Notes: generated by a model not told the origin, from the sequence alone. Positions 28,489-47,200 are shown, counted from the stretch's first letter. The stretch: 64,000 bases of DNA from Rhizocola hellebori (GCF_016862955.1 NZ_BONY01000008.1:144352-208351), one strand, 5' to 3'. Numbers and translations are program-made.

Positions 28489-30594
28489 TCACGATATCCC
28501 TGGTATGAGCGACACGATCATGTCGATGAGTTTGATGCCGATGAACGGTGCGATGATGCCGCCTAGACCGTAGATCCACAGGTTGCGGGTCAACAGCTTG
28601 CTGGCGCTGCTGGGGGTGTAGCGCACGCCGCGCAGAGCCAGCGGGATGAGCGCGATGATGACGAGCGCGTTGAAGATGATCGCGGAGATGATCGCCGTCG
28701 TCGGGGAGGTCAGGCGCATGATGTTCATGCCCTCCAGCGCCGGGTACACGCCCGCGAACATCGCCGGGATGATGGCGAAGTATTTCGCGATGTCGTTGGC
28801 GATGGAGAACGTCGTCAACGCTCCGCGCGTGATGAGCAGCTGCTTGCCGATCTCCACGATCTCGATGAGCTTGGTGGGATCCGAGTCGAGGTCCACCATG
28901 TTCCCGGCCTCTTTGGCCGCCGAGGTGCCGGTGTTCATCGCCACCCCGACGTCGGCCTGCGCCAGTGCGGGCGCATCGTTGGTGCCGTCGCCAGTCATGG
29001 CGACCAGCCGCCCGCCCTCCTGCTCCTTGCGGATCAGCGCCAGCTTGTCCTCCGGCGTCGCCTCGGCGAGGAAGTCGTCCACGCCCGCTTCATCGGCGAT
29101 CGCTTTAGCTGTCAACGGGTTGTCGCCGGTGATCATCACGGTGCGGATGCCCATGCGGCGCATCTCGTCGAACCGTTCCCGCATGCCCTGCTTGACGACG
29201 TCCTTGAGGTGGATGACACCCAGCGCGCGAGCCTGCTGCCCTGACACGACCTCTGCCACCACCAGCGGCGTGCCGCCCGAGGACGAGATGGCGTCGACAA
29301 CGTGACCGACCTCGTCGGTGGGGTGACCGCCGTTGTCACGCACCCACTTCATGACCGCGGTCGCCGCCCCCTTGCGTACCTGCCGTCCGGGCAGGTCCAC
29401 TCCGGACATTCGGGTCTGTGCGGTGAACGGCACGAAAAGAAGGCCTGCCGTCTCCCGTTCGCGCAGGTTGTATTGCTGCTTGGCCAGCACCACAATCGAG
29501 CGGCCCTCCGGCGTTTCGTCGGCCAGGCTGGACAGCTGTGCGGCGTTGGCCAGCTCCTGCGCGTCGGTCCCGGCGACCGGCAGGAATTCGGCTGCCTGCC
29601 GGTTGCCCAGGGTGATGGTGCCGGTCTTGTCCAGCAGCAACGTGTTCACATCACCGGCAGCCTCGACAGCACGCCCGGACATGGCCAGCACGTTGCGTTG
29701 CACGAGCCGGTCCATGCCCGCGATGCCGATGGCCGACAGCAACGCGCCGATGGTGGTCGGAATCAACGCCACCAACAACGACACCAGCACGATGCCGGAC
29801 AGACCGTCTTGGCCCAGCGCGATGGTGTCCGGTGCCGCGCCCTGCCATGCCTTGGCGTAGATGGCCATCGGCTGCAGTGTCACGACGGTCAGCAGGAAAA
29901 TGATGGTCAAGCTCGCCAGCAGAATGTTGAGGGCGATCTCGTTGGGGGTCTTCTGCCGGTTGGCCCCCTCCACAAGCGCGATCATCCTGTCGATGAACGA
30001 CTCCCCCGGCCGCTGCGTGATCTTGATGACGATCCTGTCCGAGAGCACCTTGGTGCCGCCGGTGACCGCGCTGCGGTCTCCGCCGGACTCGCGGATCACC
30101 GGGGCCGACTCGCCGGTGATGGCCGATTCGTCAACGCTGGCAATGCCTTCGATGACATCGCCGTCACCGGGGATGGTGTCGCCTGCCTCGCAGACCACCA
30201 CATCGCCCTGCTTGAGCGCCACAGCCTCGATGGCCACCTCGTCGGTGGCCGGCCACCTTGGCAGCTTGCGCGCGATGGTGTCCTTCTTGGCCTGGCGCAA
30301 GGTGGCGGCCTGCGCCTTGCCCCGGCCCTCGGCTACCGCCTCGGCCAGGTTGGCGAACACGACGGTCAGCCACAGCCACACCACGATGATCCAGGCGAAA
30401 GCCGACGGGTCGGTGATCGCCAGGACCGTGCTGAACACCGCCCCCACCCAGACGATGAACATGACCGGGTTGCGCCACAGGCTGGCCGGGTTGAGTTTGC
30501 GCAAAGCATCGGGAAGGGACTTCCAGAGCATCCTCGGGTCCAGCAGGCCGGCCCCGATCTTCTTGGGGGATGTTGTTGCCAGTGTTGTCATCAC
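28489..30594 (-). CDS. kdpB: KdpB, P-type ATPase catalytic subunit
   Basis: [13 protein letters not shown] phosphorylation motif, [24 protein letters not shown]; 701 aa. Confidence 0.95.
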
Positions 30595-32261
30595 AGACCT
30601 TCAGCCAGGGGGCCCAGCGCCAGCGCGGGCAGGAATGTCAACGCCACGAGGATCACGACGACACCGGCCACCATGGCGACGAAAAGCGGCTGGTGCGTCG
30701 GCAAGGTCCCCGCCGAGGCCGGAGTCGGCTTCTGTGCCGCAAGGGATCCGGCCAGACCGAGCACCATGATGATGGGAAGGAACCGTCCCAAAAGCATGCA
30801 CAGTCCAAGTGCGGTGTCCCACCACGGCGTGTTGACAGTGATACCGCCAAACGCCGAGCCGTTGTTGTTCGACGCGGACGTGAACGCGTAGAGCACTTCC
30901 GAGAACCCATGCGGGCCTACGTTGGCCTGCGTCCGCCAGTTCCCGGAGGCCAGCGCCGCGGCCGTGCCGATCAGCACCAGCGCCGGGGTGATCAGGAAGT
31001 AGAGCGACGCGAATTTGATTTCCCGGGCGCCGATCTTCTTACCCAGGTACTCCGGAGTGCGCCCGACCATCAGCCCGGCCACGAACACCGTGATGACAGC
31101 GATGACGAGCATGCCGTAGAGCCCCGCGCCCACACCACCGGGAGCCACCTCACCAAGCATCATGTTGAACATCGGCATCATCCCGCCCAGCGCCGTGTAC
31201 GAGTCGTGAAACGAGTTCACCGCGCCCGTGGACGTCAATGTCGTGGCCGCCGCGAAGGTCGCCGAGTCGGACACACCGAAGCGGATGTCCTTGCCCTCCA
31301 TGGCCGCACCGATGGCCATCGGCACCGTGCCCGCGCCATGAAGCTCGAACACGTTGGTCAGCGCGATGCTGGCGATGGCCAGAATGCCCATCACGGCGAT
31401 GATGGCGTAGCCCTGCCGGTTGTCCTTGACCATCCGGCCGAACACCCGCGGCAACGCCACCGGGATACAGAAGATGAGGAAGATCTGCAGCCAGTTCGTC
31501 CACGCGCTGGGGTTCTCGAACGGATGCGCGGAGTTGACGTTGTAGAAGCCGCCTCCGTTGGTGCCCAGCTCTTTGATGGCCTCCTGCGACGCGACCAGCC
31601 CGCCGGTGAGGTGCTGCTCGCCGCCGGTCAGCGTCGACACCACCGTGCCGTCGGTGAAGTTCTGCACCGCGCCGCCCGCAATGAGCAGGATCGCCGCCAC
31701 CGCACTGATCGGCAGAAGGACTCGCAACGTGATCCGGGTCAGGTCGACCCAGAAGTTGCCCAGCTGCCCGTTGCGCGAACGGGCGAAGCCGCGCACCAGC
31801 GCCACTGCCACCGCTATACCCACCGCCGCAGAGACGAAGTTCTGCACGCTTAGCCCGGCCGCCTGCACCAGATGGGTCATCGTCGACTCACCCGAGTAGG
31901 CCTGCCAGTTGGTGTTCGTCACGAAACTGACCGCGGTGTTCCACGCCAGGTGGTCGAAAACCCTTTCGTTGATGCCGGTTTCGAAGTTGGGGTTGGCGAA
32001 CAAGAAATCCTGCAGGCGCAGGAATGCATACAGGAACAGCAGCGAGACGGCCGAGAACGCCAGCACGCTGCGCGCGTAGGTGCCCCAGGTCTGCTCTGCG
32101 GCCGGGTTCACCCCGATGGCTCGGTACAGGCCGCGCTCAACAGCGCTGTGCTTGCTGCCGGAGACGACCCGGTACAGGTAGTCGCCGAGATAGCGGTACG
32201 CGACCGCCAGCGCGACGATGAGCGAGAGCACGAAAATCACTCCCGCGGATGTCGTGTTCAT
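30591..32261 (-). CDS. kdpA: KdpA, potassium-binding channel-like subunit
   Basis: [29 protein letters not shown] and NNGSAF selectivity-filter-like motifs; 556 aa. Confidence 0.95.
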
Positions 32262-32620: not shown

Positions 32621-34582
32621 TTAGCCCGGCTGACCATCCTGGGCAGGCGACAGCTTTCGCATGAGGGTGGCGGCCAGGCCGTCCAGGCTGGATCCGTTGC
32701 CGGTGACCAGGATGTCGGGGACCACGTTGATTTTGCCTTCGGCTACAGCGCCTGCTACCGCCACCAACGCGGTGGGCATCTCGCCGATGGCTTCCCGCTG
32801 CGCGGCGAATCCGGCCGCGCGGGCGACGCCGAGGGCCTCGGTTGCCTTGGCCTCGGCCAGTCCGATGGCCTGCACCCGGTCGGCCTCGGCCTGCCCGGTG
32901 ATCCGCGTGTACGCGGCATCCCCGCCGGCCTGCGCTTCGCGGGCTTGTGCCCGGTTGCCGTTGATGTCTACGGAGACCTGCGCGGCGGCCAGTTCCGCTT
33001 GCATGTCGGCCGTGCCGCGTGCTTTCTCCATCTCGATTCGCGCGGTCTGGGCGGCCTGCTGTTCCTTGTATGTGGCGCGTTCCTGGTTGGCTATTTCGCG
33101 GCGGGTCAGCACGGCGACCAGCTCGTCGGGAAAGACGACATCCTGGATGTAGACGCCTTTCGTTTCGATCTCGTAGCCGGCCAGGTAGCGGGTGACCGCG
33201 GTGTGCGCGCTTTGCTGCACCTGCTCGCGGGTCTCGATGAACTTGACCGCCTCCAGCGCCTGCAGCGTATTGCGGAAATGGTTGCCCACGGCCGACTGAA
33301 GAACCTCGTTGACGAGATTCTTCATCGTGCCCACCATCGAAATCACCTTGGGCGCGCGGGCATCCGGCACGTGGATCTGCACCTGCAGATCGATGGTGAA
33401 GATGAAACCCTCCCGGCTCTTACCCACAATCGGCTCCAGGCGGGCGTCCAGATCATGGGCCTGCGAGGCGGCATTGGCCCAGTTGAGCGTCAATATGAAG
33501 GTGGGTACGAGCTCGGCGGCGTAGATGCGGGGATTGATGGCGTATTTGCCTGTCCGCAACGGCTCCTGCCAGATGCCGCGGTGCCCCGGCGCCACAATGC
33601 TGCCGAACTTGAACTCCTCGCCCGAAGTGTCCAATGTGGGCAGCCCCACGAAGGACTTGATGACGGCGACCTGCCCTTGATTGACCACCAGCATCGGCAC
33701 CAATTCCACCCGCACCAGGAACGGATTGAGCAGGTATGCGCCGTACAGCAGCGGATCGTGTTGCAACCCGATCCGGCCGCCGGCATCCAGGAACGCTTGG
33801 AAGTCCTGGTAATTGTTGTGCAGGCCGTTCTTGGTACCCATCAAAATGTCAATGACCTGAGCATCGGTGACCGCCCGATCGGTTTCCAGCGCGACAATGT
33901 CGTCGAAGGCGCCGATCCGGCTGGCTAGATCACCAGAAGGCAACGGCTCACCCTCCAAAGTGGTCACCAACCCGATGACGTCGGTCGTGCCATGGGGTGC
34001 GATCACCGCCACCTCAAGCTGTTTGGGGTCAAGCTTGAAAGACTGGGCGACAAGTTTGCCTCCCCGAGCCAGCGCCGCGAACTCCGGCGCGACCGGCAGC
34101 CCATGCACGTGCCGGGCGGTGATGACCAGGAATCCCACGGGATGGATCGGCACCAGCGATCCCGGTGGAAGCACCGGCCGCTGCACACCCTTCTCCCCAC
34201 CGCCGGAGATGAAGCCGCGCAGATCGGTGAAGGTGCCAAACTCGGTGCGGTACCGCGCACTTTTCGCACCGATCGGCAACGACCGCCCGACCTGGGAGAT
34301 CACCACACCGATCTCGCCGGCCTGGATCTGTACCCAAGGAAACTTGGTGACAGTGAAGATTGGCCACCATTTCATCCGCATCCCCGGCATCAGCAGGTCG
34401 GCCTGATGTCCGGCCTCCCGATTGAAGGCGATTGGATTGTCATCGGGCAGCTTGCGGCCAAAACGCTTGGTGACCAGGCCGACCTCGGTCGGACCTATCC
34501 GGTGCACCGACTTGGCCACCATAAGAAAGAACACGAGGAGCACACCGATGGCTGCTCCTACCGCGAGGGCAATAAGCTCCAC
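32621..34582 (-). CDS. Flotillin-family (SPFH/band-7) membrane protein, 653 aa
   Basis: N-terminal TM, SPFH region, C-terminal Ala/Glu-rich coiled coil (AQTARIEMEKARGTADMQAELAAAQ...AEADRVQAIGLAEAKATEALGVA). Confidence 0.8.
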   Translation of the reverse strand: MELIALAVGAAIGVLLVFFLMVAKSVHRIGPTEVGLVTKRFGRKLPDDNPIAFNREAGHQADLLMPGMRMKWWPIFTVTKFPWVQIQAGEIGVVISQVGRSLPIGAKSARYRTEFGTFTDLRGFISGGGEKGVQRPVLPPGSLVPIHPVGFLVITARHVHGLPVAPEFAALARGGKLVAQSFKLDPKQLEVAVIAPHGTTDVIGLVTTLEGEPLPSGDLASRIGAFDDIVALETDRAVTDAQVIDILMGTKNGLHNNYQDFQAFLDAGGRIGLQHDPLLYGAYLLNPFLVRVELVPMLVVNQGQVAVIKSFVGLPTLDTSGEEFKFGSIVAPGHRGIWQEPLRTGKYAINPRIYAAELVPTFILTLNWANAASQAHDLDARLEPIVGKSREGFIFTIDLQVQIHVPDARAPKVISMVGTMKNLVNEVLQSAVGNHFRNTLQALEAVKFIETREQVQQSAHTAVTRYLAGYEIETKGVYIQDVVFPDELVAVLTRREIANQERATYKEQQAAQTARIEMEKARGTADMQAELAAAQVSVDINGNRAQAREAQAGGDAAYTRITGQAEADRVQAIGLAEAKATEALGVARAAGFAAQREAIGEMPTALVAVAGAVAEGKINVVPDILVTGNGSSLDGLAATLMRKLSPAQDGQPG

Positions 34583-34640
34583 GCCGCAAACAGTACGCCC
34601 GTCCGGCTAACTGGTCGCGTATGGATTTCGTCAAGACCTT

Positions 34641-35114
34641 TCAGGATGCCCCGCGTTCCTTTTGCCCATTTTCCAAGAGCGTGACCATTTCGGCGATCCG
34701 GCGCGCTCGCTCGTCTGGGCGGCGTTTGGTGCCGTCGATCCAGCGCAGGTAAGCCTTGCGGTAAAACTGGGCCAGCCCGTCGAAGAAGGCACCGGCCCGC
34801 GGGCTAGCCTCCAGCGCCGCGGCGACATCCGCTCCGAGGTCACCGCGTTGCGGCCCTTCGGGAATCAGTTCGACCTCGACGTGCCCGCCGATGGTCGCCC
34901 GGCTGTCACGCAGCCATGCCGCTCCTACGGCAAACCCGTGAACACCATCAGCGCCGGTTTCGATCACACCACGAAATCCGCAGCCGTTGAGCGTGCCCGT
35001 GACGGGATGACGAGGTTTGACTCCCCACGCTGCATCAGGGTCAAACGGGACGGCGATGAAACCTCCATTGCGTCCACGACCCGACATGATCGCAGAAAAC
35101 CGTTGCGGCATCAC
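34641..35114 (-). CDS. DUF1905 / YdeI-OmpD-associated family protein
   Basis: RFSAIMSGRGRNGGFIAVPFD start and C-terminal FYRKAYLRWIDGTKRRPDERARRIAEMV pattern. Confidence 0.65.
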   Translation of the reverse strand: MMPQRFSAIMSGRGRNGGFIAVPFDPDAAWGVKPRHPVTGTLNGCGFRGVIETGADGVHGFAVGAAWLRDSRATIGGHVEVELIPEGPQRGDLGADVAAALEASPRAGAFFDGLAQFYRKAYLRWIDGTKRRPDERARRIAEMVTLLENGQKERGAS

Positions 35115-35150
35115 CGGCCCATCTTCGCACCAGCGACGGCTCGCCGCGCG

Positions 35151-35564
35151 CTATGCCGGCGCGATCTCCTGGATCAACGTCTTGACCCGTTCGCGAATCT
35201 CATCACGGACCTCGCGCACCACCTCGATCGACTGGCCCGCCGGATCGGTCAGCACCCAGTCCTCGTAACGCTTTCCGGGGAAGTATGGGCAGGCGTCGCC
35301 ACAGCCCATGGTGACGATGACGTCGGATTCACGCGCGGTCTCGTATTCGAGTTTCTGCGGGATGTTGCCGGTGATGTCGATTCCCACCTCGGCCATCGCC
35401 GCCACCGCCACCGGGTTGATGGACTCCTTGGGCGCGGACCCGGCTGAGAGCACCCGGACCTTGTTGCCTGCCAGGTGTTTGAGCCATCCGGCGGCCATCT
35501 GCGACCGGCCGGCGTTGTGCACGCACACGAACAGGACCGTGGGTTGTTCGCTCGGGTCAGGCAT
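35151..35564 (-). CDS. arsC: Arsenate reductase ArsC (LMW-PTP family, thioredoxin-coupled type)
   Basis: VLFVCVHNAGRSQMAAGW is the CX5R P-loop; 137 aa. Confidence 0.9.
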   Translation of the reverse strand: MPDPSEQPTVLFVCVHNAGRSQMAAGWLKHLAGNKVRVLSAGSAPKESINPVAVAAMAEVGIDITGNIPQKLEYETARESDVIVTMGCGDACPYFPGKRYEDWVLTDPAGQSIEVVREVRDEIRERVKTLIQEIAPA

Positions 35565-36297
35565 GCTGGGCCTGCCTCTCCTCGGGTGCGGCGTTGGTCA
35601 TGACTGCGGTTTCGGCGGGGCCGACCGGATAGCACACGGCGATCAAACCTAGCGCTGCCACCATGCCAATTGCTTGGGCGGCAACGAAACCGGCTACGCT
35701 GCCGGGGGCGATCCCGGCGTAGGTGTCGGTGAAGGCACGGCCAATGGTCACCGCCGGATTGGCGAACGACGTGCTGGAGGTGAACCAGTAGGCCGCCCCG
35801 ATGTAGGCGCCCACCGCCGCGGGGATGATTGCCGCCTTGCCGGTGCGGACCAGGCCGACGATGACCACGACAAGCCCTGTGGTGGCAACGATTTCGGCGA
35901 ACCACAGGTGGGCGCCGCTGCGGATGGTCTGTGACCAGGCGATCGCGGGCAGGTCGAACATCAGGTTGGCGATGATCGCCCCGGCGATCGCCCCGCCGGT
36001 CTGCGCCGCGACGTAGCCGCCCACGTCGGGGATGGCCAGTCCGGTGCGGGTGCGCCGGCCGAGCCACCAGTCGGCAAGGGAGACGACCGGGTTGAAGTGG
36101 GCGCCCGAGATCGGGCCGAACACGGCGATCAATACGGCCAGCCCGAAGACGGTCGCCGTGGAGTTGGCCAGCAACCGCACCGCGCCGTCGGTGGACAACG
36201 TCTGAGCCATGATGCCGGAGCCGACAACGGTGGTGACCAGCGCGGCAGTGCCGACGAACTCGGCGGCGGCGCGACGCCACAGGGCTGTCATGCGCAA
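35557..36297 (-). CDS. MIP-family aquaglyceroporin (arsenite channel, AqpS-like)
   Basis: Two NPA boxes (SGAHFNPVVSL, FANPAVTIGRAF), 6 TM. Confidence 0.9.
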   Translation of the reverse strand: MRMTALWRRAAAEFVGTAALVTTVVGSGIMAQTLSTDGAVRLLANSTATVFGLAVLIAVFGPISGAHFNPVVSLADWWLGRRTRTGLAIPDVGGYVAAQTGGAIAGAIIANLMFDLPAIAWSQTIRSGAHLWFAEIVATTGLVVVIVGLVRTGKAAIIPAAVGAYIGAAYWFTSSTSFANPAVTIGRAFTDTYAGIAPGSVAGFVAAQAIGMVAALGLIAVCYPVGPAETAVMTNAAPEERQAQHA

Positions 36298-36605
36298 TCC
36301 CGGCGCGCTTCGGCATGCTCACGCGCGGTGGCGGCCAACTCGCTCAACTGCGCGGCGGCGGTGTCGAGCATGACGTGGTTGAGGTGGTAGAAGGTGAACT
36401 TGCCCCGGTTCTCGCCGGTGATCAGCCCGGCGTGGCGCAGCACCCGCACATGGTTGGATACGTTGGGCTGCTTCAGATCCAGGTCCTCCACCAGATGACA
36501 GACACATGCCGGGCCCCGCGCGAGAACCCGGACGATCCGCGCCCGGACAGGATCGGCCAGCAGGCCGGCCACCACTGTCACATCATCTTCAGCTGATATC
36601 AGCAC
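36288..36605 (-). CDS. arsR: ArsR/SmtB-family metalloregulator
   Basis: PACVCHLVEDLDLKQPNVSNHVRVLRHAGLI is the CVC metal site + HTH. Confidence 0.9.
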   Translation of the reverse strand: MLISAEDDVTVVAGLLADPVRARIVRVLARGPACVCHLVEDLDLKQPNVSNHVRVLRHAGLITGENRGKFTFYHLNHVMLDTAAAQLSELAATAREHAEARRDCA

Positions 36606-36691
36606 GCTGTGATTTTATGGGCGGCGTTCACCCGGTTGGCAAGAGCGGCACTGCTCTGTTCACGCAACGTTCGCTTTCCCGGCGCCGCAGC

Positions 36692-37057
36692 TCACGTGCC
36701 GGCGGCGGCCGGGACAGCCAGCACCGCAGCCAGCGCTTGCATCGCTGCGGGCATCGGCCGGTACCAGACCCACGTGCCACGGCGGTCACCCTCGATCAGC
36801 CCGGCTTCCCGCAGCACCCGCAGGTGATGCGAGATGGTCGGGCCGGACACGTCGAACTGCGGGGTCAGATCGCACACGCAGGCCTCCCCACCCTGAGCGG
36901 AGGTGATCATCGACAGCAGGCGCAGCCGGATCGGGTCACCGAGCGCTTTGAACATCGGCGCGAGCGTTTCGGCCTGCCCGGCATCAAGCGCGGCCTCGGC
37001 GAGTGGTTCGCAGCAGGCGCCGGTGGAGGTGTCCAGCACCACAAGCTGTTTCGACAT
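36692..37057 (-). CDS. Second ArsR/SmtB-family regulator (N-terminal CC pair + CVCDL)
   Basis: TGACCEPLAE...GEACVCDLTPQFDVSGPTISHHLRVLREAGLI. Confidence 0.9.
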   Translation of the reverse strand: MSKQLVVLDTSTGACCEPLAEAALDAGQAETLAPMFKALGDPIRLRLLSMITSAQGGEACVCDLTPQFDVSGPTISHHLRVLREAGLIEGDRRGTWVWYRPMPAAMQALAAVLAVPAAAGT

Positions 37058-37140
37058 GCCTCTAGGTTGACAGATTTCTAAACAGGGTGCAAGCTGGCCC
37101 CGTACCGCTGATTAGATATTCATCTAGACAGGAGTGGATC
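37058..37140. promoter_or_regulatory. Divergent promoter region carrying TTGACA (37067-72), TTCTAAACAG (37076-85), TAGATATT (37113-20) and ATCTAGAC (37122-29)
   Basis: The same k-mers recur in the 39593-39650 promoter and partly at 11531; read directly. Confidence 0.4.
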
Positions 37141-37293
37141 GTGTTCACCAAACTGCTGCGCAGGCTCACCGCTACCGGGCCGACCGAGTTCTGCGACGAG
37201 TGCGCCCAGGTGTGCACCAGCGCCTGCCGCGCCGAAGCGCACTACAGCCGGATCCGCGAGCAGGCCGCCGCAAACGTTCCGTTCATCCGTTAA
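37141..37293 (+). CDS. Small 4-Cys protein (50 aa; C-x2-C-x3-C-x3-C). Putative metal-binding micro-protein.
   Basis: AGGAG-7nt-GTG; MFTKLLRRLTATGPTEFCDECAQVCTSACRAEAHYSR; it is the C-terminal part of track ORF 37087..37293. Confidence 0.45.
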   Translation: MFTKLLRRLTATGPTEFCDECAQVCTSACRAEAHYSRIREQAAANVPFIR

Positions 37294-37306
37294 CCGAGGA
37301 GAATGC

Positions 37307-37538
37307 CATGACCACTACACCAACAACGGGTGGGTTCACCGGAGACCTTGCCGACGCGTTCACCCCGCCGTCCGGCGGCGGCTGTTGCGGCAGCGCTCCC
37401 TCGACCGCCGCCCCCGCCGACGCTAGCGCCGCCAGCCCGTGCTGCGGCACGGCCGCCGACGCGCAGGCGGCGGGAAGCTGTTGCGGCGCCGCTGCCAAGG
37501 CCGAAGCGGTCGCGACCGGTCAGGGCTGCTGCGGATGA
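37307..37538 (+). CDS. Low-complexity Ala/Gly/Thr-rich protein with four evenly spaced CCG vicinal-cysteine repeats (76 aa). Metallothionein-like candidate.
   Basis: GAGGAG-6nt-ATG; GGGCCGS, SPCCGT, GSCCGA, GQGCCG; the stop overlaps the next ATG (ATGA). Confidence 0.5.
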
Positions 37539-38740
37539 GCTTGCCCATCGCGGGGCCGGAAACCACCGGCCCCGCGCATCGGATGCGCGAGATGGTCGTG
37601 CGCCTTGCGGCGGACGAGTTCGCCGGACGCCGGGTAGGCAGCGCAGGTGGGCGGGCAGCGGCCCGATGGCTGGCTGAGCAGCTCAGGAGCGTCGGCGCAC
37701 AGGTGCGCCTGGACGAGTTCACCGTCACGGGCGCGGTCAAGGAGCTCTCCGCGCCGCCGGTGCTCATCTGGCACCAGGAATTCGGTGACACCGACCTTGT
37801 CCATCGGCGCGACTTCGCCGAACACCTTGCCTCAGCACACCTGCCTACTGTCCGGAAAGGACAGCTGACTCTGGCCGGGTCTGGGAAAGAGCGGGGTGCC
37901 TGGGTAGTGGCGGAAACACTTGGCACCGCGTCACTCCCCCACCTTTTCGCCGCCGGCGCAGCTGGGCTGCTGGTGCCCAGGGGCGCCGACGACGCGGGCT
38001 GGATGCCGAAAATGATCGCCGGGCCGGCCGCTGGACCGCTACCCGTCCTGTCGGTGCGCACCGACCTGCACACGCAGCTGGCCGCGTCTGCCGAAGGCAG
38101 CGGGTCATGGGTGTCGGCGTCCGTACCCGTGAAAAGTGTTGAAGTAAATGGGATCAATGTTCATGGCGTCTTTCGCGAGCCTGAGCCTGGCGCGCTGTCA
38201 GTGTTGCTCGCCGCCCATTTCGATGGGGTGGGCGATGATGCCGGGCTGCGCCATCCGGCCGCGGCCGACAACGCCTCCGGGGTGGCCGTGATTGTTGAAG
38301 CGGCGCAACAGCTTCACCACACGCTGCCACCCGGGATGGGTCTGGCGGTGGCCTTGCTGGATGCCGAGGAGGCGGGAGCGCACGGCTCGGCTCACCATGC
38401 CCCGCAGGTGCCCGCAGGCACATTGGTGATCAACATGGATGGGGCGGCGCAATTGCACCAGGCCGCAGCAGTGGAAGCGGGCGGCCCCGCCCACGCGCTG
38501 CTGGCCGCGCTCGACCAGGCGGGCCGGCTCGCCGGTGTGCCGCTGCGAGCCCAGGCCATGCCGTCGGACAACCGGCGCTACGCGGCGGCAGGGCTGGCGG
38601 CCGTGGGGATCGGGATGGGCATGCCCGGCTACCAGACACCCGCCGAAACCGCCGACCGCGTCGAGGATTCAACCTTGCTGGCCGCCGCCGCCCTGATTAC
38701 CACCACGGTCACGATCCTGCGTGAGCATGTTAAAGTCTAA
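37535..38740 (+). CDS. M28-family zinc aminopeptidase
   Basis: AAHFDGVGDDAGLRHPAAADNASGVAV and LLDAEEAGAHGSAHH metal-ligand motifs. Confidence 0.8.
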   Translation: MSLPIAGPETTGPAHRMREMVVRLAADEFAGRRVGSAGGRAAARWLAEQLRSVGAQVRLDEFTVTGAVKELSAPPVLIWHQEFGDTDLVHRRDFAEHLASAHLPTVRKGQLTLAGSGKERGAWVVAETLGTASLPHLFAAGAAGLLVPRGADDAGWMPKMIAGPAAGPLPVLSVRTDLHTQLAASAEGSGSWVSASVPVKSVEVNGINVHGVFREPEPGALSVLLAAHFDGVGDDAGLRHPAAADNASGVAVIVEAAQQLHHTLPPGMGLAVALLDAEEAGAHGSAHHAPQVPAGTLVINMDGAAQLHQAAAVEAGGPAHALLAALDQAGRLAGVPLRAQAMPSDNRRYAAAGLAAVGIGMGMPGYQTPAETADRVEDSTLLAAAALITTTVTILREHVKV

Positions 38741-38778
38741 TCGTCTATCGCCGATTGACGATGATATTGGGGTACCGG

Positions 38779-39105
38779 ATGGAGCTACTGGATCGGGCCG
38801 CGGCGGCCGAATACGCCTCATGGTTCAAAGCCTTGGCCGACCCGTCGCGGGTGCAGCTGGTCGAGCTGCTCGCGCGCACGGGTGAGCCGATGAGCGTCGG
38901 CGAGATCGTCGGGGTCATGGGATTGGCCCAGTCGACGGTGTCGCAGCACTTGAAGATCCTGGCGGAGGTGCGGTTCGTGCTCGCCGAGCCCGACGGCAAC
39001 GCCCGCCGCTATCGCATCAACACCAACTGCATCAGCTGTTTCCCCAGTGCCGCCGACCTCGTCATGGGCAAACCAGCACCAGCCAAACCGGGGGAATCAT
39101 GCTGA
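38779..39105 (+). CDS. Third ArsR/SmtB-family regulator (C-terminal Cys residues)
   Basis: FKALADPSRVQLVELLARTGEPMSVGEIVGVMGLAQSTVSQHLKIL; C-terminal NTNCISC...ESC. Confidence 0.8.
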   Translation: MELLDRAAAAEYASWFKALADPSRVQLVELLARTGEPMSVGEIVGVMGLAQSTVSQHLKILAEVRFVLAEPDGNARRYRINTNCISCFPSAADLVMGKPAPAKPGESC

Positions 39106-39596
39106 CGATCCGCCCTATGACCGACGCCGACGGCGACGCTGTGCTCGCCATCTACCAGGCCGGAATCGACACCGGCAACGCGACCTTCGAGACGGCGGCT
39201 CCGCCGTGGCAGGAGTTCGACACCCGCCGCATGCGCGAGCACCGCTTCGTCGCCGAAGGCGGCACCGGGCAAGTTCTGGGCTGGGTCGCCTGCATCCCGT
39301 TCTCCTGGCGGCACGCCTACCGGGGTGTGGTGGAGCACGCCGTCTACATCCACCCGGAGGCCCGCGGTCAGGGCGTGGGGATTGCCTTGATGCGTCAGCT
39401 CATCGCCTCCACCGAGGCGGGTGGGATCTGGACCCTGCAGTCTGGCGTCTTCCCGGAGAACACCGCCTCCCTTGCGCTGCACCGGGCGGCCGGATTCCGG
39501 CAGATCGGCGTCCGGGAACGGGTCGGCTGCCTCGACGGCGTGTGGCGCGACGTCGTGCTCGTCGAGCGCCGCAGCACGATCGCGGGCTTGTCTTGA
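39099..39596 (+). CDS. GNAT acetyltransferase of the phosphinothricin-acetyltransferase (PAT) family. ArsN-like (arsinothricin N-acetyltransferase candidate).
   Basis: IRPMTDADGDAVLAIYQAGIDTGNATFET...VYIHPEARGQGVGIALM matches the PAT/Bar pattern; it overlaps the ArsR gene by 7 nt. Confidence 0.75.
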   Translation: MLTIRPMTDADGDAVLAIYQAGIDTGNATFETAAPPWQEFDTRRMREHRFVAEGGTGQVLGWVACIPFSWRHAYRGVVEHAVYIHPEARGQGVGIALMRQLIASTEAGGIWTLQSGVFPENTASLALHRAAGFRQIGVRERVGCLDGVWRDVVLVERRSTIAGLS

Positions 39597-39650
39597 CAAT
39601 TGTCTAACTAGACGGCAGTCTAGATATTGGTTAGAGGAACTTCTAAACAG
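39593..39650. promoter_or_regulatory. Promoter region with TTGACA, palindrome GACAATTGTC, inverted repeat CTAGAC-ggca-GTCTAG, GTCTAGAT (39618-25) and TTCTAAACAG (39641-50)
   Basis: Read directly; the motifs are shared with 37058-37140. Confidence 0.4.
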
Positions 39651-39665
39651 ACTTTAAGGGGTGCC

Positions 39666-41030
39666 ATGAGCACTAATGCCAGCACGTTGCCGGTCGCGGT
39701 CATCGGCGCGGGCCCGGTCGGCATGGCCGCCGCCGCCCAGCTCGCCACCCGCAACATGCCCTTCGTGGTTCTGGAAGCCGGCGACACCGTCGCCGCGTCT
39801 GTGGCGCAATGGGCGCACGTGCGCCTGTTCTCCCCGTGGCGGTACAACACCGACCCCGCCGCCCGCGCCCTGCTGGAAACCACCGGCTGGACAGCGCCCG
39901 ACCCGCAGCAGCTGCCCACCGGCGGCGACCTGGTCAGCCAATACCTGGCCCCGCTGGCCGCGCACCCGGCGATCGCCCCGCACATCCGTTACGGCGCAAC
40001 CGTTTCCGCGATCGCCCGGCAGGGCTTCGACAAGGTCCGCACCACCGGCCGTGAACACGCCCCGTTCCTGATCCGCCTGGCCGACGACACCGAGCTGCTG
40101 GCCCGCGCCGTCATCGACGCCTCGGGAACCTGGCGTCACCCGAATCCAGTCGGCGGCAACGGCCTTGCCGCCCACGGTGAGGCCGAAGCCCGCGCCAACG
40201 GCCGTGTCTTCGACGGCATGCCCGATGTATTGGGCGTCTTACGTCCCCACTTCGTCGGTAAGAACGTTGCCGTCATCGGCGCGGGCCACTCGGCTACGGG
40301 GACCGTGCTGGCCCTGGCCGAGCTCGCCGCGGACACGACCGTGCATTGGGTCGTGCGTGCCCCGGACCCGTCCCGGGCCTACGGCGGCGGCGCAGCCGAT
40401 GCCCTGCCCGCCCGCGGATCGATCGGAAGCGCGGTCAAAGCCCTTGTCGAGCAAGGAAAAGTGACCGTCCACACCGGATTCTTCGCGCACGAGATCACCG
40501 GCGATGCTGTCGTGTCCACCGACGGGGAGAAGGTGGCGGCGGACGTCATCGTCAATGCCACCGGCGCGCGCCCGGACCACACCGCGGCCACCGAGCTACG
40601 CCTGGACCTGGACCCGATTCTCGGCTCCACTCGCGCTCTCGCCCCGCTGATCGACCCGAACCAGCACTCCTGCGGCACCGTCCCACCCCACGGCGCCGAC
40701 GAACTCGCCCACCCCGAAGCCGGGTTCTTCATCGTCGGCGCGAAGTCCTACGGCCGCGCCCCCACCTTCCTTCTCGCCACCGGCTACGAGCAGACCCGCT
40801 CGGTCGTGGCCGCCATCGACGGTGACTGGGAAGCCGCCCGCAACGTCCAGCTGGAACTACCCGAAACCGGCGTCTGCTCCACCAACGCCGACACCGCCGA
40901 GTCCTCCTGCTGCGGCCCCACACCGGACGTCAAGCGCGGCCTGGCCACCGGTGTTCAGGGCGGCCTGATTTCCCTGCCGCTGGTCACCATTGGTGGACCG
41001 GCCAGCAGCGGCGACGGCTGCTGCAGCTGA
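39666..41030 (+). CDS. FAD/NAD(P)-binding flavin-monooxygenase-like oxidoreductase (ArsO-like) with C-terminal Cys-rich tail (CSTNADTAESSCCGPT...GDGCCS)
   Basis: Two Rossmann motifs, VAVIGAGPVGMAAA and VAVIGAGHSATG; 454 aa from MSTNAS. Confidence 0.75.
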   Translation: MSTNASTLPVAVIGAGPVGMAAAAQLATRNMPFVVLEAGDTVAASVAQWAHVRLFSPWRYNTDPAARALLETTGWTAPDPQQLPTGGDLVSQYLAPLAAHPAIAPHIRYGATVSAIARQGFDKVRTTGREHAPFLIRLADDTELLARAVIDASGTWRHPNPVGGNGLAAHGEAEARANGRVFDGMPDVLGVLRPHFVGKNVAVIGAGHSATGTVLALAELAADTTVHWVVRAPDPSRAYGGGAADALPARGSIGSAVKALVEQGKVTVHTGFFAHEITGDAVVSTDGEKVAADVIVNATGARPDHTAATELRLDLDPILGSTRALAPLIDPNQHSCGTVPPHGADELAHPEAGFFIVGAKSYGRAPTFLLATGYEQTRSVVAAIDGDWEAARNVQLELPETGVCSTNADTAESSCCGPTPDVKRGLATGVQGGLISLPLVTIGGPASSGDGCCS

Positions 41031-41031
41031 C

Positions 41032-42225
41032 GTGACAGCGATCCTCACCCCGGCCGCCACCACACCCGGTGGCGGCCCGGCCGCGCATTCACGCCGTCTC
41101 ATCGCCGTCCTTTCGGTCACCCAGACTGTCGGCTACGGCGTGCTCTCCTATGCCTTCCCCGTCCTGCTCACGCCCATCGCACATGAGCTGGGCGCCAGCA
41201 CCGCCACTGTCACCGGCGCATTCACCGCGGCGATTGTCGCCGCCGCAGCCGCCTCCATCCCGGTCGGGCGGTGGCTCGACAAGCAGGGCGGCCGCGCCCT
41301 GCTCACCTTCGGCTCAGCCACCGCGGCCGCTCTGGTCCTCGCCTGGTCGCAGGTCACCACCATCTGGCAGCTCTACGCCGTCTTCGTCCTCATCGGGCTC
41401 GCCTCGGCCACCATGCTCTACGAAGCAGCCTTCCCTGTCATCGTCGCCGCCACCCGACCGGAACGCCGCGACAACGCGCTCCTCGCGGTCACCATCGTCG
41501 CCGGATTCGCCTCCAGCATCTTCTTCCCGCTGACCGGGCTGCTGCTTGAGCGCCACGGCTGGCGTACCACCCTGGTCATCCTCGCCGTCTTGCTCGCGGC
41601 GATCACCATTCCCGCCCATCTGCTGGCCGTTCCGGGCCGCCGGCAACACCAGACCCGCACGGCGGGCGCTGGCTCAGGTGTTCGCGAAGCGTTACGAGAC
41701 AAGGCATTCTGGCTCCTGGCCGCCGCCTTCGTCGTCCACGGCGCGGCCATCTCCGCCGTCGGCGTCCTTCTGGTCACTTACCTCCTGCGCGCCGGGCACA
41801 CCGCGACCGCCGCCGCCACACTTTCCGGCCTGCTCGGCATCCTGTCCGTCACCGGCCGGCTCACCACCACCGGTCTGTCCAAACGATTCGGCATGACCGC
41901 CGTCACCGCCGCCGTCTTCGCCGCTCAAGCTTTCGGCGCGGCAGCGCTGCCATTTCTTGGCGGCACCATCGCCGGCGCCGGCGCCTGCATCGTCGCTTTC
42001 GGACTCGGCTTCGGCGTCGCCACCATCGCCAGACCCGCCATCCTCGCCGCCCGCTACGGCACGAGCCGGTACGCCACCATCGCCGGCATCATGACAATGC
42101 CCATCACTCTCGCCAAAGCCGGCGCGCCCCTCGCCGCCGCAGCCGTCGCCCCCAACACCTTCATGGCCGCCGCCGCAATCGCTTGCGGCACCAGCGCCCT
42201 ACTCCTCCTGCGCATCTCGCGATAG
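41032..42225 (+). CDS. MFS transporter (possible organoarsenical / metalloid efflux, ArsK-like by context). The start could be 40990 (TTG) or 41032 (GTG).
   Basis: 12 TM hydrophobic profile; immediately follows the FMO-like gene. Confidence 0.75.
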   Translation: MTAILTPAATTPGGGPAAHSRRLIAVLSVTQTVGYGVLSYAFPVLLTPIAHELGASTATVTGAFTAAIVAAAAASIPVGRWLDKQGGRALLTFGSATAAALVLAWSQVTTIWQLYAVFVLIGLASATMLYEAAFPVIVAATRPERRDNALLAVTIVAGFASSIFFPLTGLLLERHGWRTTLVILAVLLAAITIPAHLLAVPGRRQHQTRTAGAGSGVREALRDKAFWLLAAAFVVHGAAISAVGVLLVTYLLRAGHTATAAATLSGLLGILSVTGRLTTTGLSKRFGMTAVTAAVFAAQAFGAAALPFLGGTIAGAGACIVAFGLGFGVATIARPAILAARYGTSRYATIAGIMTMPITLAKAGAPLAAAAVAPNTFMAAAAIACGTSALLLLRISR

Positions 42226-42269
42226 GCGGCAAGACACCTCAATGCTGCATTTCTGGCCAGAGGTGGCTT

Positions 42270-43859
42270 TCAGGCTCCGGCTCTGGTCAGGGTGATGACG
42301 TTGGTGGTCGTGCTGCAACCGCCCATGGTGACGCAGCCGTTGCCGGTCTGCGTCAGAGTCAGCACCGGGTCGCTGCCCGCGATCTGGTAGGTGCCAGATC
42401 CCTGCATCGACACGCCGCTACCCGAGCCGGTGTAGGTGTAGGTGCCACCGGTGCCGCTGGCCGGGGTGTAGGAGTAGACGACATCGAAGCCGGTTCCCTT
42501 GCCTTGCAAGGTGAATGGGGCGGTGAGGTCGTTGACGGTGCCGGAGACCTTCACCTGGGTGCCCCCACTGGCGACGTACCCGCCGCGTTTGGTGTCGAAA
42601 TCGATGCTCGCCTTGGCGACACCTCTGCGCGATCTGGCCTCAAGGGCCACCGTCCCGGTCTTGTCGGGGGCGTCCGGCGCGGTGTAGGTGAAGGTCGCGT
42701 CGGCGTTCACCTTGCTGCCGTCCGGCTTGACCGAGGCGCCACCTCCGGCGAGGGTCGCCTTGACCGACCCGCCGACAGGCCCGCCGTCGATCCGGCTGCG
42801 GGGCGCCGCGTTGATCGTTGAGGTTGCGCCGGGTTTCATGCCTTTCGGCCCCGGCGAGACGGTCGGCTTGAGGCTCACGCAATTGCCTGACTGCCAGCCC
42901 TTCTCGGCCGCCAAGGCGACCGAGCTCGCCACGATCATGCTGAACAGCGAGCCGAAGCCGACAGCCGATTCCTGCATCGAGCTGTTCGCCTTGCCGCCGC
43001 TGCGGGTGAGCGTCGCGGAGCGCACCTTCGTATCGCCCATCGCACCTGAGACCTCCACGAAACCACCCTTGCTGTTCGCGAAGTCGGCAAACTGCATGCG
43101 GTATTCGGTATCGGTCGACGCCAGCTTGGCGTCATCGTCGGCCTGGCCGGTGATCGCGAGGTCCAGGGTGCCCTTCTGGCCGGTGCTGCCACCGGACTTC
43201 GTCACCGAGACATCGACTTTGGCGCTCGCCTCGAAGCGGCCGTTCGCGTCGGGACATGGGCTGATCCCGATTTTCACGATCAGTCTGGTAGTCACGCCGT
43301 GCGATTCGTGAGTGGCGTCCAGCACCATGTCGACGTGTCCGCGGGAGCCCGAGATATTCATTTCCTTGCCCAGGTCCATAGAACCTTGGCCGTCCGTGAA
43401 CTCGTTGGAGGCGGACACCGCGCGGTCGGCCCCGAGGAAGGCCACGATCGCGCCGCCGAACATGCCTTCACCGATGGTGGGATCGGCCACGTACAGCACC
43501 GGCTTTATCACCATTGGCAGGTCACCGATCGCCCGTGCCTTGCTGGTGAGTGCCTTGCCGTGGGCGTCAAAGGCCGCGTCAGCGGCCGCGGCGCCGCCCA
43601 GCGCCGACTCCAGGCCCGACTCGGTCCACAGCCCTCGCTCCAGGACGTTGTCCAGCCTGGCGAGCTCGATCTCCTGCAGCTCCTTCGATCGCGCCCGCTG
43701 GGTGTCGACCATGCGCTGCAGCGCCGGCATGTCCACGGCACCGTCAACGACGACCGGGCCCTGCTTCACCGGGTCGTCGGACTTCGAGCCGCAAGCGCTA
43801 AGCACGAGTGCCGCCACCGCGACTAGCGAAAGCGAGCGGGCGAAACCGAGGTGCGACAA
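42270..43859 (-). CDS. Large secreted lipoprotein, function unknown
   Basis: Lipobox LVLSACGS after the signal peptide; AGGAG-7nt-TTG start; Gly/Ser/Thr-rich C-terminal half. Confidence 0.65.
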   Translation of the reverse strand: MSHLGFARSLSLVAVAALVLSACGSKSDDPVKQGPVVVDGAVDMPALQRMVDTQRARSKELQEIELARLDNVLERGLWTESGLESALGGAAAADAAFDAHGKALTSKARAIGDLPMVIKPVLYVADPTIGEGMFGGAIVAFLGADRAVSASNEFTDGQGSMDLGKEMNISGSRGHVDMVLDATHESHGVTTRLIVKIGISPCPDANGRFEASAKVDVSVTKSGGSTGQKGTLDLAITGQADDDAKLASTDTEYRMQFADFANSKGGFVEVSGAMGDTKVRSATLTRSGGKANSSMQESAVGFGSLFSMIVASSVALAAEKGWQSGNCVSLKPTVSPGPKGMKPGATSTINAAPRSRIDGGPVGGSVKATLAGGGASVKPDGSKVNADATFTYTAPDAPDKTGTVALEARSRRGVAKASIDFDTKRGGYVASGGTQVKVSGTVNDLTAPFTLQGKGTGFDVVYSYTPASGTGGTYTYTGSGSGVSMQGSGTYQIAGSDPVLTLTQTGNGCVTMGGCSTTTNVITLTRAGA

Positions 43860-44237: not shown

Positions 44238-47200
44238 ATGCCGATGTTCGGATCACCTAATGGCGATGTGCTGGGCATGGACGGCCCGATTGCCGAGGCG
44301 CTGCTACGCGCGGGGCGTTACCTGCGCCGCGTGGAGACGTCGGGCGATCTGCGGTCGGTATACAAGGTTGGTGGCCGCGGGTCAGATGCCTTTCAGCGCG
44401 CACAGTGGAGCCACGACGCCGTGGTGCGTTCCACGCACGGCGTGAACTGTACCGGGTCGTGCTCGTGGAAGGTGTATGTCAAGGACGGGATTATCACCTG
44501 GGAGGAGCAGCAGACCGATTATCCAAGCACCGGGCCTGACCGGCCGGAATACGAGCCGCGGGGTTGCCCACGCGGCGCGGCGTTCTCGTGGTACACCTAC
44601 TCGCCGACCCGTGTGCGCTATCCGTATGTGCGGGGTGTTCTGCTCGAGATGTATCGGGCGGCCAAGGCCGAGTTCGGTGATCCCGTGCTGGCTTGGGAGC
44701 ATTTGACCGACGACCCGATGAAGCGGCGTGCCTATCAGAAGGCCCGTGGCAGGGGCGGATTTGTGCGGGCCGGCTGGGACGAGGCCGTGGAAATGATCGC
44801 GGCCGCGCATGTTCACATCATCAAGCGCTACGGGCCGGACCGGATAGCGGGATTCTCGCCCATTCCCGCGATGTCGATGGCGTCGTACGCGGCCGGAAGC
44901 CGCTTCTTTTCGCTCATCGGTGGCGTGATGCTGTCATTTTATGACTGGTACGCCGACCTGCCGGTGGCGTCGCCGCAAGTGTTCGGCGACCAGACCGATG
45001 TGCCGGAGTCGGCGGACTGGTGGGACGCCTCGTATCTGCTGGTGTGGGGTTCGAATGTGCCGGTCACCCGTACTCCCGACGCACATTGGATGGTCGAGGC
45101 GCGTTACCGTGGCCAGAAGGTCGTCGTGGTGTCGCCCGACTTCTCCGACACCGTCAAGCTTGGTGACGAGTGGCTTCCCGCTCAGCCTGGTACCGATGGC
45201 GCGCTCGCGATGTCGATGGGTCATGTGATTCTTCGTGAGTTCTTCGTCGACCGGACAGTGCCCCGTTTCGTTGACTACGCCAAACGCTTTACCGACCTTC
45301 CGTTCCTGGTGACGCTGCGGCAAGAGGGTGAGGCGTATGTCGCGGACAAGTTCCTCACCGATGACGGATCCGACGGCGAGGCGAGCTTCAAGACGGTGAT
45401 GTACGACCGGAAAACGGGTCCAGTCGTGCCAAACGGCTCGTTGGGTTTCCGCTTCGCGAAGTCGGGCATCGGCAAGTGGAACCTCGATCTGGGCGACATC
45501 GATCCGCTGCTGACGCTGTACGACGACGCGACCGAAATGGTCGCTGTCACCATGCCGCGTTTTGACGTCACGGGTGTGCTGCCCCGAGGGGTGCCGGCGC
45601 GCCGGATTGGCGAGCACCTGGTGACGACCGTGTTCGACCTGCTGCTCGCGCAGTATGGGGTCGCGCGGCCCGGCCTGGCCGGGCAATGGCCACTGTCGTA
45701 TTCGGACACCGATCAGCCCTATACGCCCGGGTGGCAGGAGGCCATCACGTCTGTTCCGGCGGAGGCGGCGGCGCGGGTAGCCCGTGAGTTCGCGCGCAAT
45801 GCCGAAGAATCGGGCGGCCGATCGATGATAATCATGGGATCGGGTTGCAATCATTGGTTCCACTCCGACACGATTTACCGCTCGTTTCTGGCGCTGCTGA
45901 AGCTGACCGGGTGCCAGGGCATCAACGGTGGCGGCTGGGCGCACTATGTGGGGCAGGAGAAGGTGCGCCCGCTGACCGGCTGGTCTCAGCTCGCCTTCGG
46001 GCTGGACTGGGCTCGCCCCGCACGCCAGCAGGCCGCGACGCCGTACTGGTACATGCACACCAATCAGTGGCGCTATGACACGTTCACGGCCGACGCCTTC
46101 GCCTCACCCACTGGGCGGCAGCGGTTCGAGGGCCGGACGGTCGCCGATCTGATCGCACAGTCAGCCAGGCTGGGCTGGATGCCCTCTTACCCCACCTTCA
46201 ACCGCAATCCGCTAGACCTCGCCGATGAGGCCGACGATCCGGTGGCCCACGTGATCGCGCGGCTAAAGGACGGGACTCTGCGCTTTGCCGCCGACGATCC
46301 GGATGCGCCGGAGAATTGGCCGCGCGCGTTGACTGTGTGGCGGGCCAACCTGCTCGGATCGTCGGGCAAAGGACACGAATACTTCCTGCGCCACCTACTC
46401 GGCACCGACTCCGCGGTGCGGGGGGAGCCGGTGGGACAGGCTCCGGAAGGCAAGCTGGATCTGTTGCTGGCGTTGGATTTTCGCATGACGAGCACCACGA
46501 TGTTCGCCGATGTCGTCCTGCCCGCCGCGACGTGGTATGAGAAACACGACCTGTCGAGCACCGACTTGCACCCGTATGTGCACGCGTTCAACCCCGCGAT
46601 CGCGCCACCGTGGCAGACCCGCACAGACTTCGCCGCGTTCGCGGCCATCGCGAAGTCGTTCAGCGCCATGGCCAAAACACATCTCGGCGTGCGCCGGGAC
46701 ATCGTCGCCGCGCCGCTGATGCACGACACACCCGACGAGCTGGCCACCGTCCACGGGATCGTGAAGGATTGGCGCTCCGGCGAATGCGAACCGGTGCCTG
46801 GGCTCACCATGCCGCGGCTGATCGTGGTGCAACGCGACTACCCGGCCGTCGCCGACCGCATGGCGGCGCTCGGCCCACTGGTGGAAAGCCTCGGCGCGAC
46901 AACGAAGGGTGTTCGGTACGAGCTGTCCCGCGAGGTGGAGTATTTGGGAAGGCATAACGGTGTGGCCCGGGAGGGTGCCGCCGCAGGGCGGCCGTCGCTC
47001 GCGCGCGACACCGACCTGTGCGAGGCGATCCTTGCCCTGTCGGGTACCACGAATGGAGACGTTGCCGCTGCGGGCTTTGCGGAGTTGGAGCGCAGGACCG
47101 GTACCCCCTTAATGGACTTGAAAAGTCATGGGAGAGTGACCTTTGCCGACACGCAGCAAGGCCCGGTACCTGTCGGCACGTCGCCGGAATGGTCAGGAAT

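Follow-up and report, generated by a model that had tools for sequence, protein, structure and literature searches.

The 64,000-nucleotide stretch of Rhizocola hellebori DNA analysed here (NZ_BONY01000008.1, 144352-208351; referred to as the window, from whose first letter all positions are counted) contains an arsenic (ars) gene cluster in which two promoters carry repeated copies of a 24-bp palindrome; the palindrome, the ArsR-type protein that probably binds it and the genes that it would control are the subject of this report. All the genes named for this cluster in an initial annotation of the DNA were found by open reading frame (ORF) and Pfam/NCBIfam profile scans, including the three ArsR paralogs at 36288-36605(-), 36692-37057(-) and 38755/38779-39105(+), each with an HTH_5 domain. 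On the minus strand, arsR1 (36288-36605) is the first gene of arsR1-MIP-arsC and is followed by a MIP channel gene (35557-36297; Pfam MIP) and by an arsC of the low-molecular-weight protein tyrosine phosphatase (LMW-PTP) type (35151-35564; Pfam LMWPc). The next minus-strand gene, arsR2 (36692-37057), encodes a protein of 121 aa (WP_203907555.1) with the cysteine pairs Cys15-Cys16 and Cys60/Cys62.

The plus strand opens with a basic Cys protein of 50 aa, called here the micro-protein, which contains a CxxC and a CxxxC motif and is annotated as hypothetical protein WP_203907556.1. Its existence as a four-Cys protein had been claimed correctly; a start at 37140 is out of frame, the correct frame being 37141-37293. 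It is followed by a 76-aa CCG-repeat protein with four CCG motifs and a GCCG end (37308-37538), an M28-family peptidase (37535-38740; Pfam Peptidase_M28, 77.6 bits) and arsR3 (38779-39105; 108 aa as annotated, with an upstream TTG at 38755 as a possible alternative start). The gene arsN (39099-39596) encodes an ArsN1-like GNAT acetyltransferase, whose full-length match to the ArsN1 arsinothricin N-acetyltransferase family A (NCBIfam ArsN1a, NF040503) is 145.1 bits, near but under the cutoff of 170. The last two genes encode a flavoprotein of the FAD/NAD(P) type (39666-41030; 454 aa, Pyr_redox_2/3) with CC pairs in its tail, and a major facilitator superfamily (MFS) transporter, distantly ArsK-like, with an uncertain start codon (40990-42225; MFS_1). 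In the NCBIfam scan, all the accessory proteins of the cluster scored below the curated cutoffs of the named arsenic families. ArsR2, the flavoprotein and six further proteins of the cluster match proteins of Rhizocola hellebori, a member of the Micromonosporaceae, with full identity. The G+C content of the window was measured as 66.5%, in place of the 70% given before.

One of the two promoter regions lies between the divergent arsR2 and micro-protein genes and the other between arsN and the flavoprotein gene, where there is no divergent arsR2. The exact words which these regions had been reported to share are all present, and TTGACA occurs in both. In the window ATCTAGAC has three copies (11531+, 37122+ and 39618-), with a shuffle expectation of 0.33; TTCTAAACAG has two (37076 and 39641), and TAGATATT has two, with a shuffle expectation of 0.08. 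Their description required correction. The word ATCTAGAC, taken for a self-palindrome, is palindromic only in its inner TCTAGA, the copy at 39618 being on the opposite strand, and TCTAGA itself, said to be rare, has an ordinary count in the window (3 observed versus 2.5 expected). The real unit is not one of these 8- to 10-mers, which had been proposed as the operator, but a 24-bp palindrome with three copies in each promoter; the shared words are different arms of it and do not occupy homologous positions in the two promoters. When the sites of the palindrome are numbered O1, O2 and O3, the right arm is TTCTAAACAG in O2 of the first promoter and in O3 of the second, and it is ATCTAGAC in O3 of the first promoter and, on the opposite strand, in the middle site of the second. 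The word TAGATATT consists of left arm and spacer in one site and is the right arm in the other.

The palindrome was defined on 80 stretches of DNA (L001-L080; 1.57 Mb in total) that encode homologs of the flavoprotein at 57-77% identity and come from genera other than that of the window, with Micromonosporaceae, Kribbella, Nonomuraea, Streptosporangium and others represented. In these loci 149 sites matched the seed TTAGA-N6-TCTAA when one mismatch was allowed, and the weight matrix was refined on L001-L080 alone, the window being left out of training. The consensus obtained was CTRnTTnGA-N6-TCnAAnYAG, with a core TnGA-N6-TCnA in which T6, G8, A9, T16, C17 and A19 are nearly invariant. The flanks of the seed sites, which were not used in their selection, were conserved as well (C 0.69, T 0.72, R 1.0, and the complement on the right). 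When the 64-kb window was scanned with this matrix, exactly six sites were found, with scores of 20.8-30.8 bits, all of them in the two promoters; the runner-up outside these six scored 10.7 bits, and the highest score in 50 whole-window shuffles was 13.9 bits.

Both promoter regions are AT-rich (about 50% G+C, in surroundings of 66%), and their likeness might be ascribed to chance, to this composition or to a recent local duplication without constraint. Composition-matched shuffles of the two regions, however, gave 99th percentiles of 10.8-12.4 bits, scores above 12 being rare, and in nine further AT-rich parts of the window the score did not exceed 10.7 bits. Moreover, over Micromonosporaceae, Kribbella, Nonomuraea and plasmid systems conservation is seen in the arms of the palindrome but not in its spacers. 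The operator likeness of the two promoters greatly exceeds what chance would give; an origin without constraint is already refuted by the comparative data, and its probability is close to nil.

In the divergent promoter the first site, O1 (37046-37069; CTGTTTCGA-CATGCC-TCTAGGTTG, 22.4 bits), spans the arsR2 start codon (37055-37057) and the putative -10 of the leftward promoter. The second, O2 (37062-37085; CTAGGTTGA-CAGATT-TCTAAACAG, 25.8 bits), is 16 bp apart from O1, the two having their inner arms in common, and it holds in its left arm the TTGACA of the rightward promoter, that is, the -35 hexamer (37067-37072), and has TTCTAAACAG as its right arm. The third, O3 (37108-37131; CTGATTAGA-TATTCA-TCTAGACAG), is with 30.8 bits the best site of the window; it lies in the leader of the micro-protein operon, 46 bp from O2, and runs up to the Shine-Dalgarno sequence GGAG (37131-37134), with TAGATATT and ATCTAGAC both inside it.

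The flavoprotein promoter is built from the same parts. Its O2 (39588-39611; TTGTCTTGA-CAATTG-TCTAACTAG, 28.0 bits) holds the -35 TTGACA at 39593-39598, a layout matched in L002, L004, L007, L011, L016 and L077; the stop codon of arsN (39594-39596) falls within this -35. An extra site, O2' (39604-39627; CTAACTAGA-CGGCAG-TCTAGATAT, 20.8 bits), lies at a distance of 16 bp from O2 that is also seen in L007 and L011, overlies the putative -10 CAGTCT (39616-39621) and includes GTCTAGAT and TAGATATT. The O3 of this promoter (39627-39650; TTGGTTAGA-GGAACT-TCTAAACAG, 26.4 bits) lies in the leader of the flavoprotein-MFS operon, includes TTCTAAACAG and is 39 bp from O2.

These distances fall within the pattern of the related loci, in which 386 sites of at least 16 bits were found in 174 clusters, with one or more clusters in each locus. 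With few exceptions the clusters adjoin genes for an ArsR2-type regulator, the flavoprotein, the CCG protein or the micro-protein. Where a cluster has three sites, a pair exactly 16 bp apart is nearly always among them, and the O2-O3 distance is 33-47 bp with a mode of 40, so that the 39 bp of the flavoprotein promoter is near-modal. At a second place in Nonomuraea and Streptosporangium loci (L020, L030, L047 and L050), three operator-like sites spaced 16 + 16 bp form a variant array (e.g. ...TATAGACAGCCATCGAAATCAATGTCTCTCTATATTGACA...).

A putative -10 of the rightward divergent promoter is CAAGCT (37090-37095, plus strand), 17 nt after TTGACA, and in those orthologous promoters that were inspected a CAnnnT hexamer was seen by eye, without counting, 17-18 nt past TTGACA or TTGACT. 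On the opposite strand, the arrangement TTGCAy-17-CAAcnT-6/7-ATG was found upstream of 37/37 arsR2 orthologs; this conserved geometry of -35, -10 and ATG indicates that the arsR2 mRNA is probably leaderless. The arsR2 spacer, -10 and first codons are overlain by O2 and O1, and arsR2 thus has an inverted repeat over its own promoter, from the -35 to the start codon.

The O3 sites are within transcribed leaders, and the segment 39608-39623 was listed as a weak terminator-like stem in a terminator scan; it could therefore be proposed that the palindromes work as RNA, in the form of a leader hairpin or terminator, for instance as the hairpin CTAGACGGCAGTCTAG, which separates the arsN and flavoprotein genes. 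Against this, the mirror positions of 360 distinct sites were no more complementary than independent columns, with T6, G8 and A9 invariant, the folding energies of the leaders were no better than those of shuffles (z -1.6 to +0.5), the Rfam scan of the whole window gave no match, and O1 and O2 are upstream of the inferred transcription start. Since there is no covariation, ordinary folding and no Rfam match, the element appears to be read as sequence, in the manner of a protein-binding site, and a function as RNA is most improbable.

The question of which ArsR paralog binds this site can be approached from the same loci. Genes of the ArsR2 type were found in 76/80 of them and were the sole ArsR type in 41; among 125 multi-site clusters, 56 adjoin ArsR2-type, 7 ArsR3-type and 0 ArsR1-type genes. 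By matrix scan, no operator of the ArsR2 type was found at the arsR1 and arsR3 promoters of the window. Each of these has a palindrome of another kind. Just upstream of arsR3, and starting at the last base of the stop codon of the M28 gene, there is a perfect-looking 11-1-11 palindrome at 38740-38762 (ATCGTCTATCG-C-CGATTGACGAT); the pattern ATCGnnnATCGnCGATnnnCGAT has 30 matches in the 1.57 Mb of the loci, 29 of which are at ArsR3-type gene starts, and the palindrome is a candidate operator for arsR3-arsN, that is, for resistance of the arsinothricin type. The third kind, CTGATATCAG (36593-36602), comes directly after the GTG start codon of arsR1 (36605). Its core TGATATCA has 12 matches in the same 1.57 Mb and is found at 10/10 ArsR1-type gene starts. 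Together with the hexamers TTGCCA (36637-36642) and TAAAAT (36612-36617) upstream of arsR1, this suggests that arsR1-MIP-arsC has a promoter and an operator to itself, the promoter being possibly leaderless.

The distribution of the three palindromes shows three ArsR circuits which, as read from these loci, would be kept apart by three different operators. Because ArsR1 and ArsR3 each have a different palindrome of their own, it is well supported that the 24-bp operator belongs to ArsR2, the identity of the binding protein being what we infer from gene neighbourhood. The earlier idea that the two promoters have an operator in common, to which one of the paralogs binds, is in this way well supported by the matrix and the loci, with ArsR2 as the probable paralog. 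It might still be argued that a real operator is bound by ArsR1, by ArsR3 or by several paralogs interchangeably, since all three are ArsR/SmtB HTH_5 proteins of one cluster and since CTGATATCAG is similar to the outer arms of the main operator, CTGAT...ATCAG. This is unlikely in view of the 41/80 loci in which the ArsR2 type stands alone near the operator, of the near confinement of the ArsR1 and ArsR3 palindromes to their own gene starts (10/12 and 29/30 matches, respectively) and of the lack of an ArsR2-type operator at the arsR1 and arsR3 promoters.

ArsR2 itself scores 54.5 bits with Pfam HTH_5 and 88.5 bits with NCBIfam HTH_metalloreg (cutoff 55), and its nearest solved structure is 6J0E, the ArsR of Corynebacterium glutamicum (CgArsR; E 6e-17); in the alignment the N-terminal Cys-Cys pairs of the two proteins coincide. 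Among 95 aligned orthologs Cys15-Cys16 is kept in 72-85%, despite alignment noise, and Cys60/Cys62, which form a CVC motif, in 88-89%.

From these elements the following mechanism is proposed, to which we assign a probability of roughly 0.8: ArsR2 would repress both promoters through the six 24-bp sites and be released by metalloid, and the arsR1 and arsR3 circuits would be separate. ArsR2 would be a homodimeric repressor of the ArsR/SmtB family and of the C. glutamicum ArsR type. When metalloid is absent, its dimers would be bound to the sites and would keep RNA polymerase off both promoters, that of arsR2 itself included. In the divergent promoter, O1 and O2 would cover the rightward -35 and spacer as well as the arsR2 spacer, -10 and start codon, with O3 placed in the leader of the micro-protein/CCG/M28 operon, and at the internal promoter (39588-39650) the three sites would extend over the -35 and -10 elements and the leader of the flavoprotein-MFS operon. 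As(III), or possibly Sb(III) or methylarsenite, would then bind to Cys15-Cys16 and one Cys of the CVC motif, the metalloid-bound ArsR2 would leave the DNA and both operons would be expressed. ArsR1 would act on arsR1-MIP-arsC and ArsR3 on arsR3-arsN, each through its own palindrome. The -10 elements, the transcription starts and the inducer are parts of this scheme that we infer.

Several observations weigh against this scheme. The CVC motif of ArsR2 is a few residues past the position of Cys55 in CgArsR, so that the third As(III) ligand would be shifted, and no named NCBIfam equivalog matched ArsR2 at cutoff, the best being the Rv2640c family NF041413 with 115 versus 155 bits. A sigma-70 consensus scan of 34500-42400 called no promoter, so that support for the -10 elements comes from their position in the comparison, and the hexamers CAAGCT and CAGTCT are weak matches. 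Cross-binding by ArsR1 or ArsR3 is also possible.

The operator is not confined to loci with the flavoprotein. Homologs of ArsR2 with 60-65% identity are encoded on plasmids of Gordonia, Streptomyces, Rhodococcus (pREL1) and Pseudonocardia, where they head classical arsR-acr3-arsC operons. There the architecture is reduced to O2 and O1, which overlap at the start of arsR and score 22-29 bits. On a plasmid of Corynebacterium maris that encodes an ArsR with 77% identity to CgArsR, the acr3/arsR spacer contains sites of 23.3 and 13.5 bits that keep the core TnGA-N6-TCnA. From the plasmid homologs and the C. maris sites together, the operator is predicted to be a trait of the whole CgArsR-type clade. 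Full-text searches, whose coverage did not extend to the published CgArsR footprint, gave no description of the operator or of the flavoprotein family.

In the 'type 3' ArsR proteins the As(III) site is formed by Cys15, Cys16 and Cys55 (PMC11868830). CgArsR (PDB 6J0E, C. glutamicum ArsR1/ArsR2) belongs to this type and is the closest solved relative of ArsR2; besides the aligned CC pair, the two have an identical start of the recognition helix, PTISHHL, and both genes are divergently transcribed and, in the case of ArsR2 by prediction, autoregulated. They differ in the third cysteine, which is Cys55 in CgArsR and would be Cys60 or Cys62 of the CVC motif in ArsR2, and the third ligand may therefore differ. 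In addition, the window has a further promoter, an internal one, with three sites in each of the two, and the cargo consists of flavoprotein-MFS and small Cys-rich proteins in place of acr3/arsC, the CgArsR operator being located in the arsR/acr3 intergenic region.

Operators of the 12-2-12 kind, as known for SmtB and CzrA, are imperfect palindromes bound by winged-helix dimers, often in several copies and overlapping the promoter. The operator described here is like them in being an imperfect palindrome over a promoter in several copies. The core of the SmtB operator is TGAA-N6-TTCA and its effector is zinc; in contrast, the core in the window is TnGA-N6-TCnA, with outer CTR/YAG and another spacing, and the proposed effector is a metalloid. 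The system is of the ordinary ArsR repressor-operator kind, with a cargo that is conserved and largely uncharacterised. Existing knowledge of ArsR regulation is not overturned by it, and the operator consensus and promoter layout, which are those of the actinomycete (CgArsR-type) branch of ArsR, may be used to predict arsenic regulons of this phylum from sequence. The uncharacterised genes under arsenic-type control are widespread and are candidates for functional study and for the design of arsenic biosensors.

Among the cargo, the flavoprotein is 100% identical to a Rhizocola hellebori entry labelled 'flavoprotein' and has more than 8000 relatives in the database. Its AlphaFold model (pLDDT 71) has a two-Rossmann fold of the low-Mr thioredoxin reductase (TrxR)/YpdA/ferredoxin-NADP reductase (FNR) type; the fold matches were Bdr/YpdA, TrxR and FNR, and the best was bacillithiol disulfide reductase (E 1e-16, 20% identity). 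The motif NxHSCG is kept in 80/80 homologs, and a CC pair in the disordered tail in 77/80. The usual end is GCCG, the protein of the window ending in CCS; its C-terminal tail is encoded at 40875-41030. An N-terminal MSDSCCG is added in 32 homologs, of the Nonomuraea type, and in the body of the protein invariant Cys are only single (Cys336, Cys404). Assignment to ArsO (NF040505) was rejected, the score of 53.7 bits being far from the cutoff of 425 and confined to the N-terminal half, as was the Joint Genome Institute (JGI) label of thioredoxin reductase, there being no CxxC redox motif. The MFS gene follows the flavoprotein gene in most loci; against ArsK arsenite efflux (NF033733) its product scored 141.8 bits, under the cutoff of 400.

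Orthologs of the micro-protein are the first ORF past the operator in many loci. Their alignment has no universal Cys, V24, R30 and R37 being conserved, and the Cys vary between both motifs, CxxC alone and CxxxC alone. Nothing in Pfam reached threshold for the micro-protein, and a match to SCIFF (16 versus 27 bits) was taken as chance. The CCG protein belongs to no Pfam or NCBIfam family; orthologs with the layout GGCCG...CCG...GCCG were found in about 30 loci, and wherever a CCG homolog was detected it was followed by an M28 peptidase gene, except in one locus (L007). Other small CC-rich peptides, e.g. MTTQCCTPAAQETCCALEAKVECCGT...., adjoin operator clusters in L068 and L073.

Flavoprotein and MFS genes also occur together in known arsenic systems. 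ArsV is described as an NADPH-dependent flavin monooxygenase which oxidises MAs(III) (bioRxiv 10.1101/2021.08.12.456183). With the organoarsenical oxidoreductases ArsO, ArsV, ArsH and ArsZ and the MFS efflux pump ArsK, the present genes have in common the order of a flavoprotein followed by an MFS gene, a predicted control by ArsR and the location in an ars cluster; they differ in that the flavoprotein and the MFS protein are far under the ArsO and ArsK cutoffs and in the TrxR/YpdA-like fold with its GCCG-type tail. We know of no description of a C-terminal GCCG tail for ArsO or ArsV. Vicinal Cys or Sec tails are found in MerA (CC) and in the high-Mr thioredoxin reductases (GCUG, SCCS, GCCG), which are likewise pyridine-nucleotide flavoproteins with a flexible C-terminal tail of the Gly-Cys-Cys-Gly kind; unlike these, the flavoprotein family has a core of the low-Mr TrxR/YpdA type without a CxxC or CVNVGC redox disulfide, and the resemblance of the tails may serve as a lead. 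The vicinal Cys pairs of the cargo proteins suggest that these may bind trivalent arsenicals or relay electrons. It is tempting to speculate, although we consider it rather doubtful, that the flavoprotein, the MFS protein, the Cys protein of about 50 aa and the CCG and M28 proteins form an undescribed arsenic or organoarsenical pathway of actinomycetes, in which the Cys pairs, acting like the MerA and TrxR tails, would take up a trivalent arsenical or carry electrons to or from the flavin, and the MFS protein would export the product.

The initial annotation had further proposed that the regulon is dispersed and extends, by way of the third copy of ATCTAGAC, to the LMW-PTP-like gene at 11613. 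The word does exist at 11531, 75 bp upstream of that gene, and its arm TCTAGACGG is a good single arm when compared with TCTAAnCAG; it is, however, a lone half-site and no more than chance would give. No partner arm was found in either orientation and the matrix stayed below 0 bits across 11505-11545; with the two real sites removed, one copy of the 8-mer remains in the window against 0.33 expected (P ~0.28). The 11613 gene itself has a weak LMWPc match (22 bits, cutoff 23.2), and homologs of it are absent from the 80 ars loci. Its 12 metagenomic relatives (33-67% identity) have neither the operator nor TCTAGA upstream, a negative that weighs little because only distant homologs were returned. 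The neighbours of the gene are a ChrA chromate transporter gene (9925-11142, minus strand) and a gene at 12527-12871 with, by eye, a PadR-like N-terminus, a context that points away from arsenic. With a lone arm, a sub-threshold LMWPc match, no homolog in the ars loci and a chromate-transporter neighbour, a regulon of ArsR2 that takes in the 11613 gene through the ATCTAGACGG element was rejected as very unlikely.

With respect to the borders of the cluster, the MIP and ArsC genes adjoin ArsR1/ArsR2 in the loci and their synteny is conserved. A YdeI/OmdA-DUF1905 gene is found downstream of arsC (34641-35114); since all 80 related ars loci are without a counterpart, it was left out and is probably outside the conserved ars cluster. 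The cluster is chromosomal, and 'island' is a loose term for it because no mobile-element genes were found among the flanking ORFs scanned. On one flank (21054-32261) are the genes of the sensor kinase KdpD, kdpABC and an SPFH/Band-7 protein, and on the other (44238-49309) those of a 535-aa protein without Pfam match and of a nitrate-reductase-like molybdopterin oxidoreductase.

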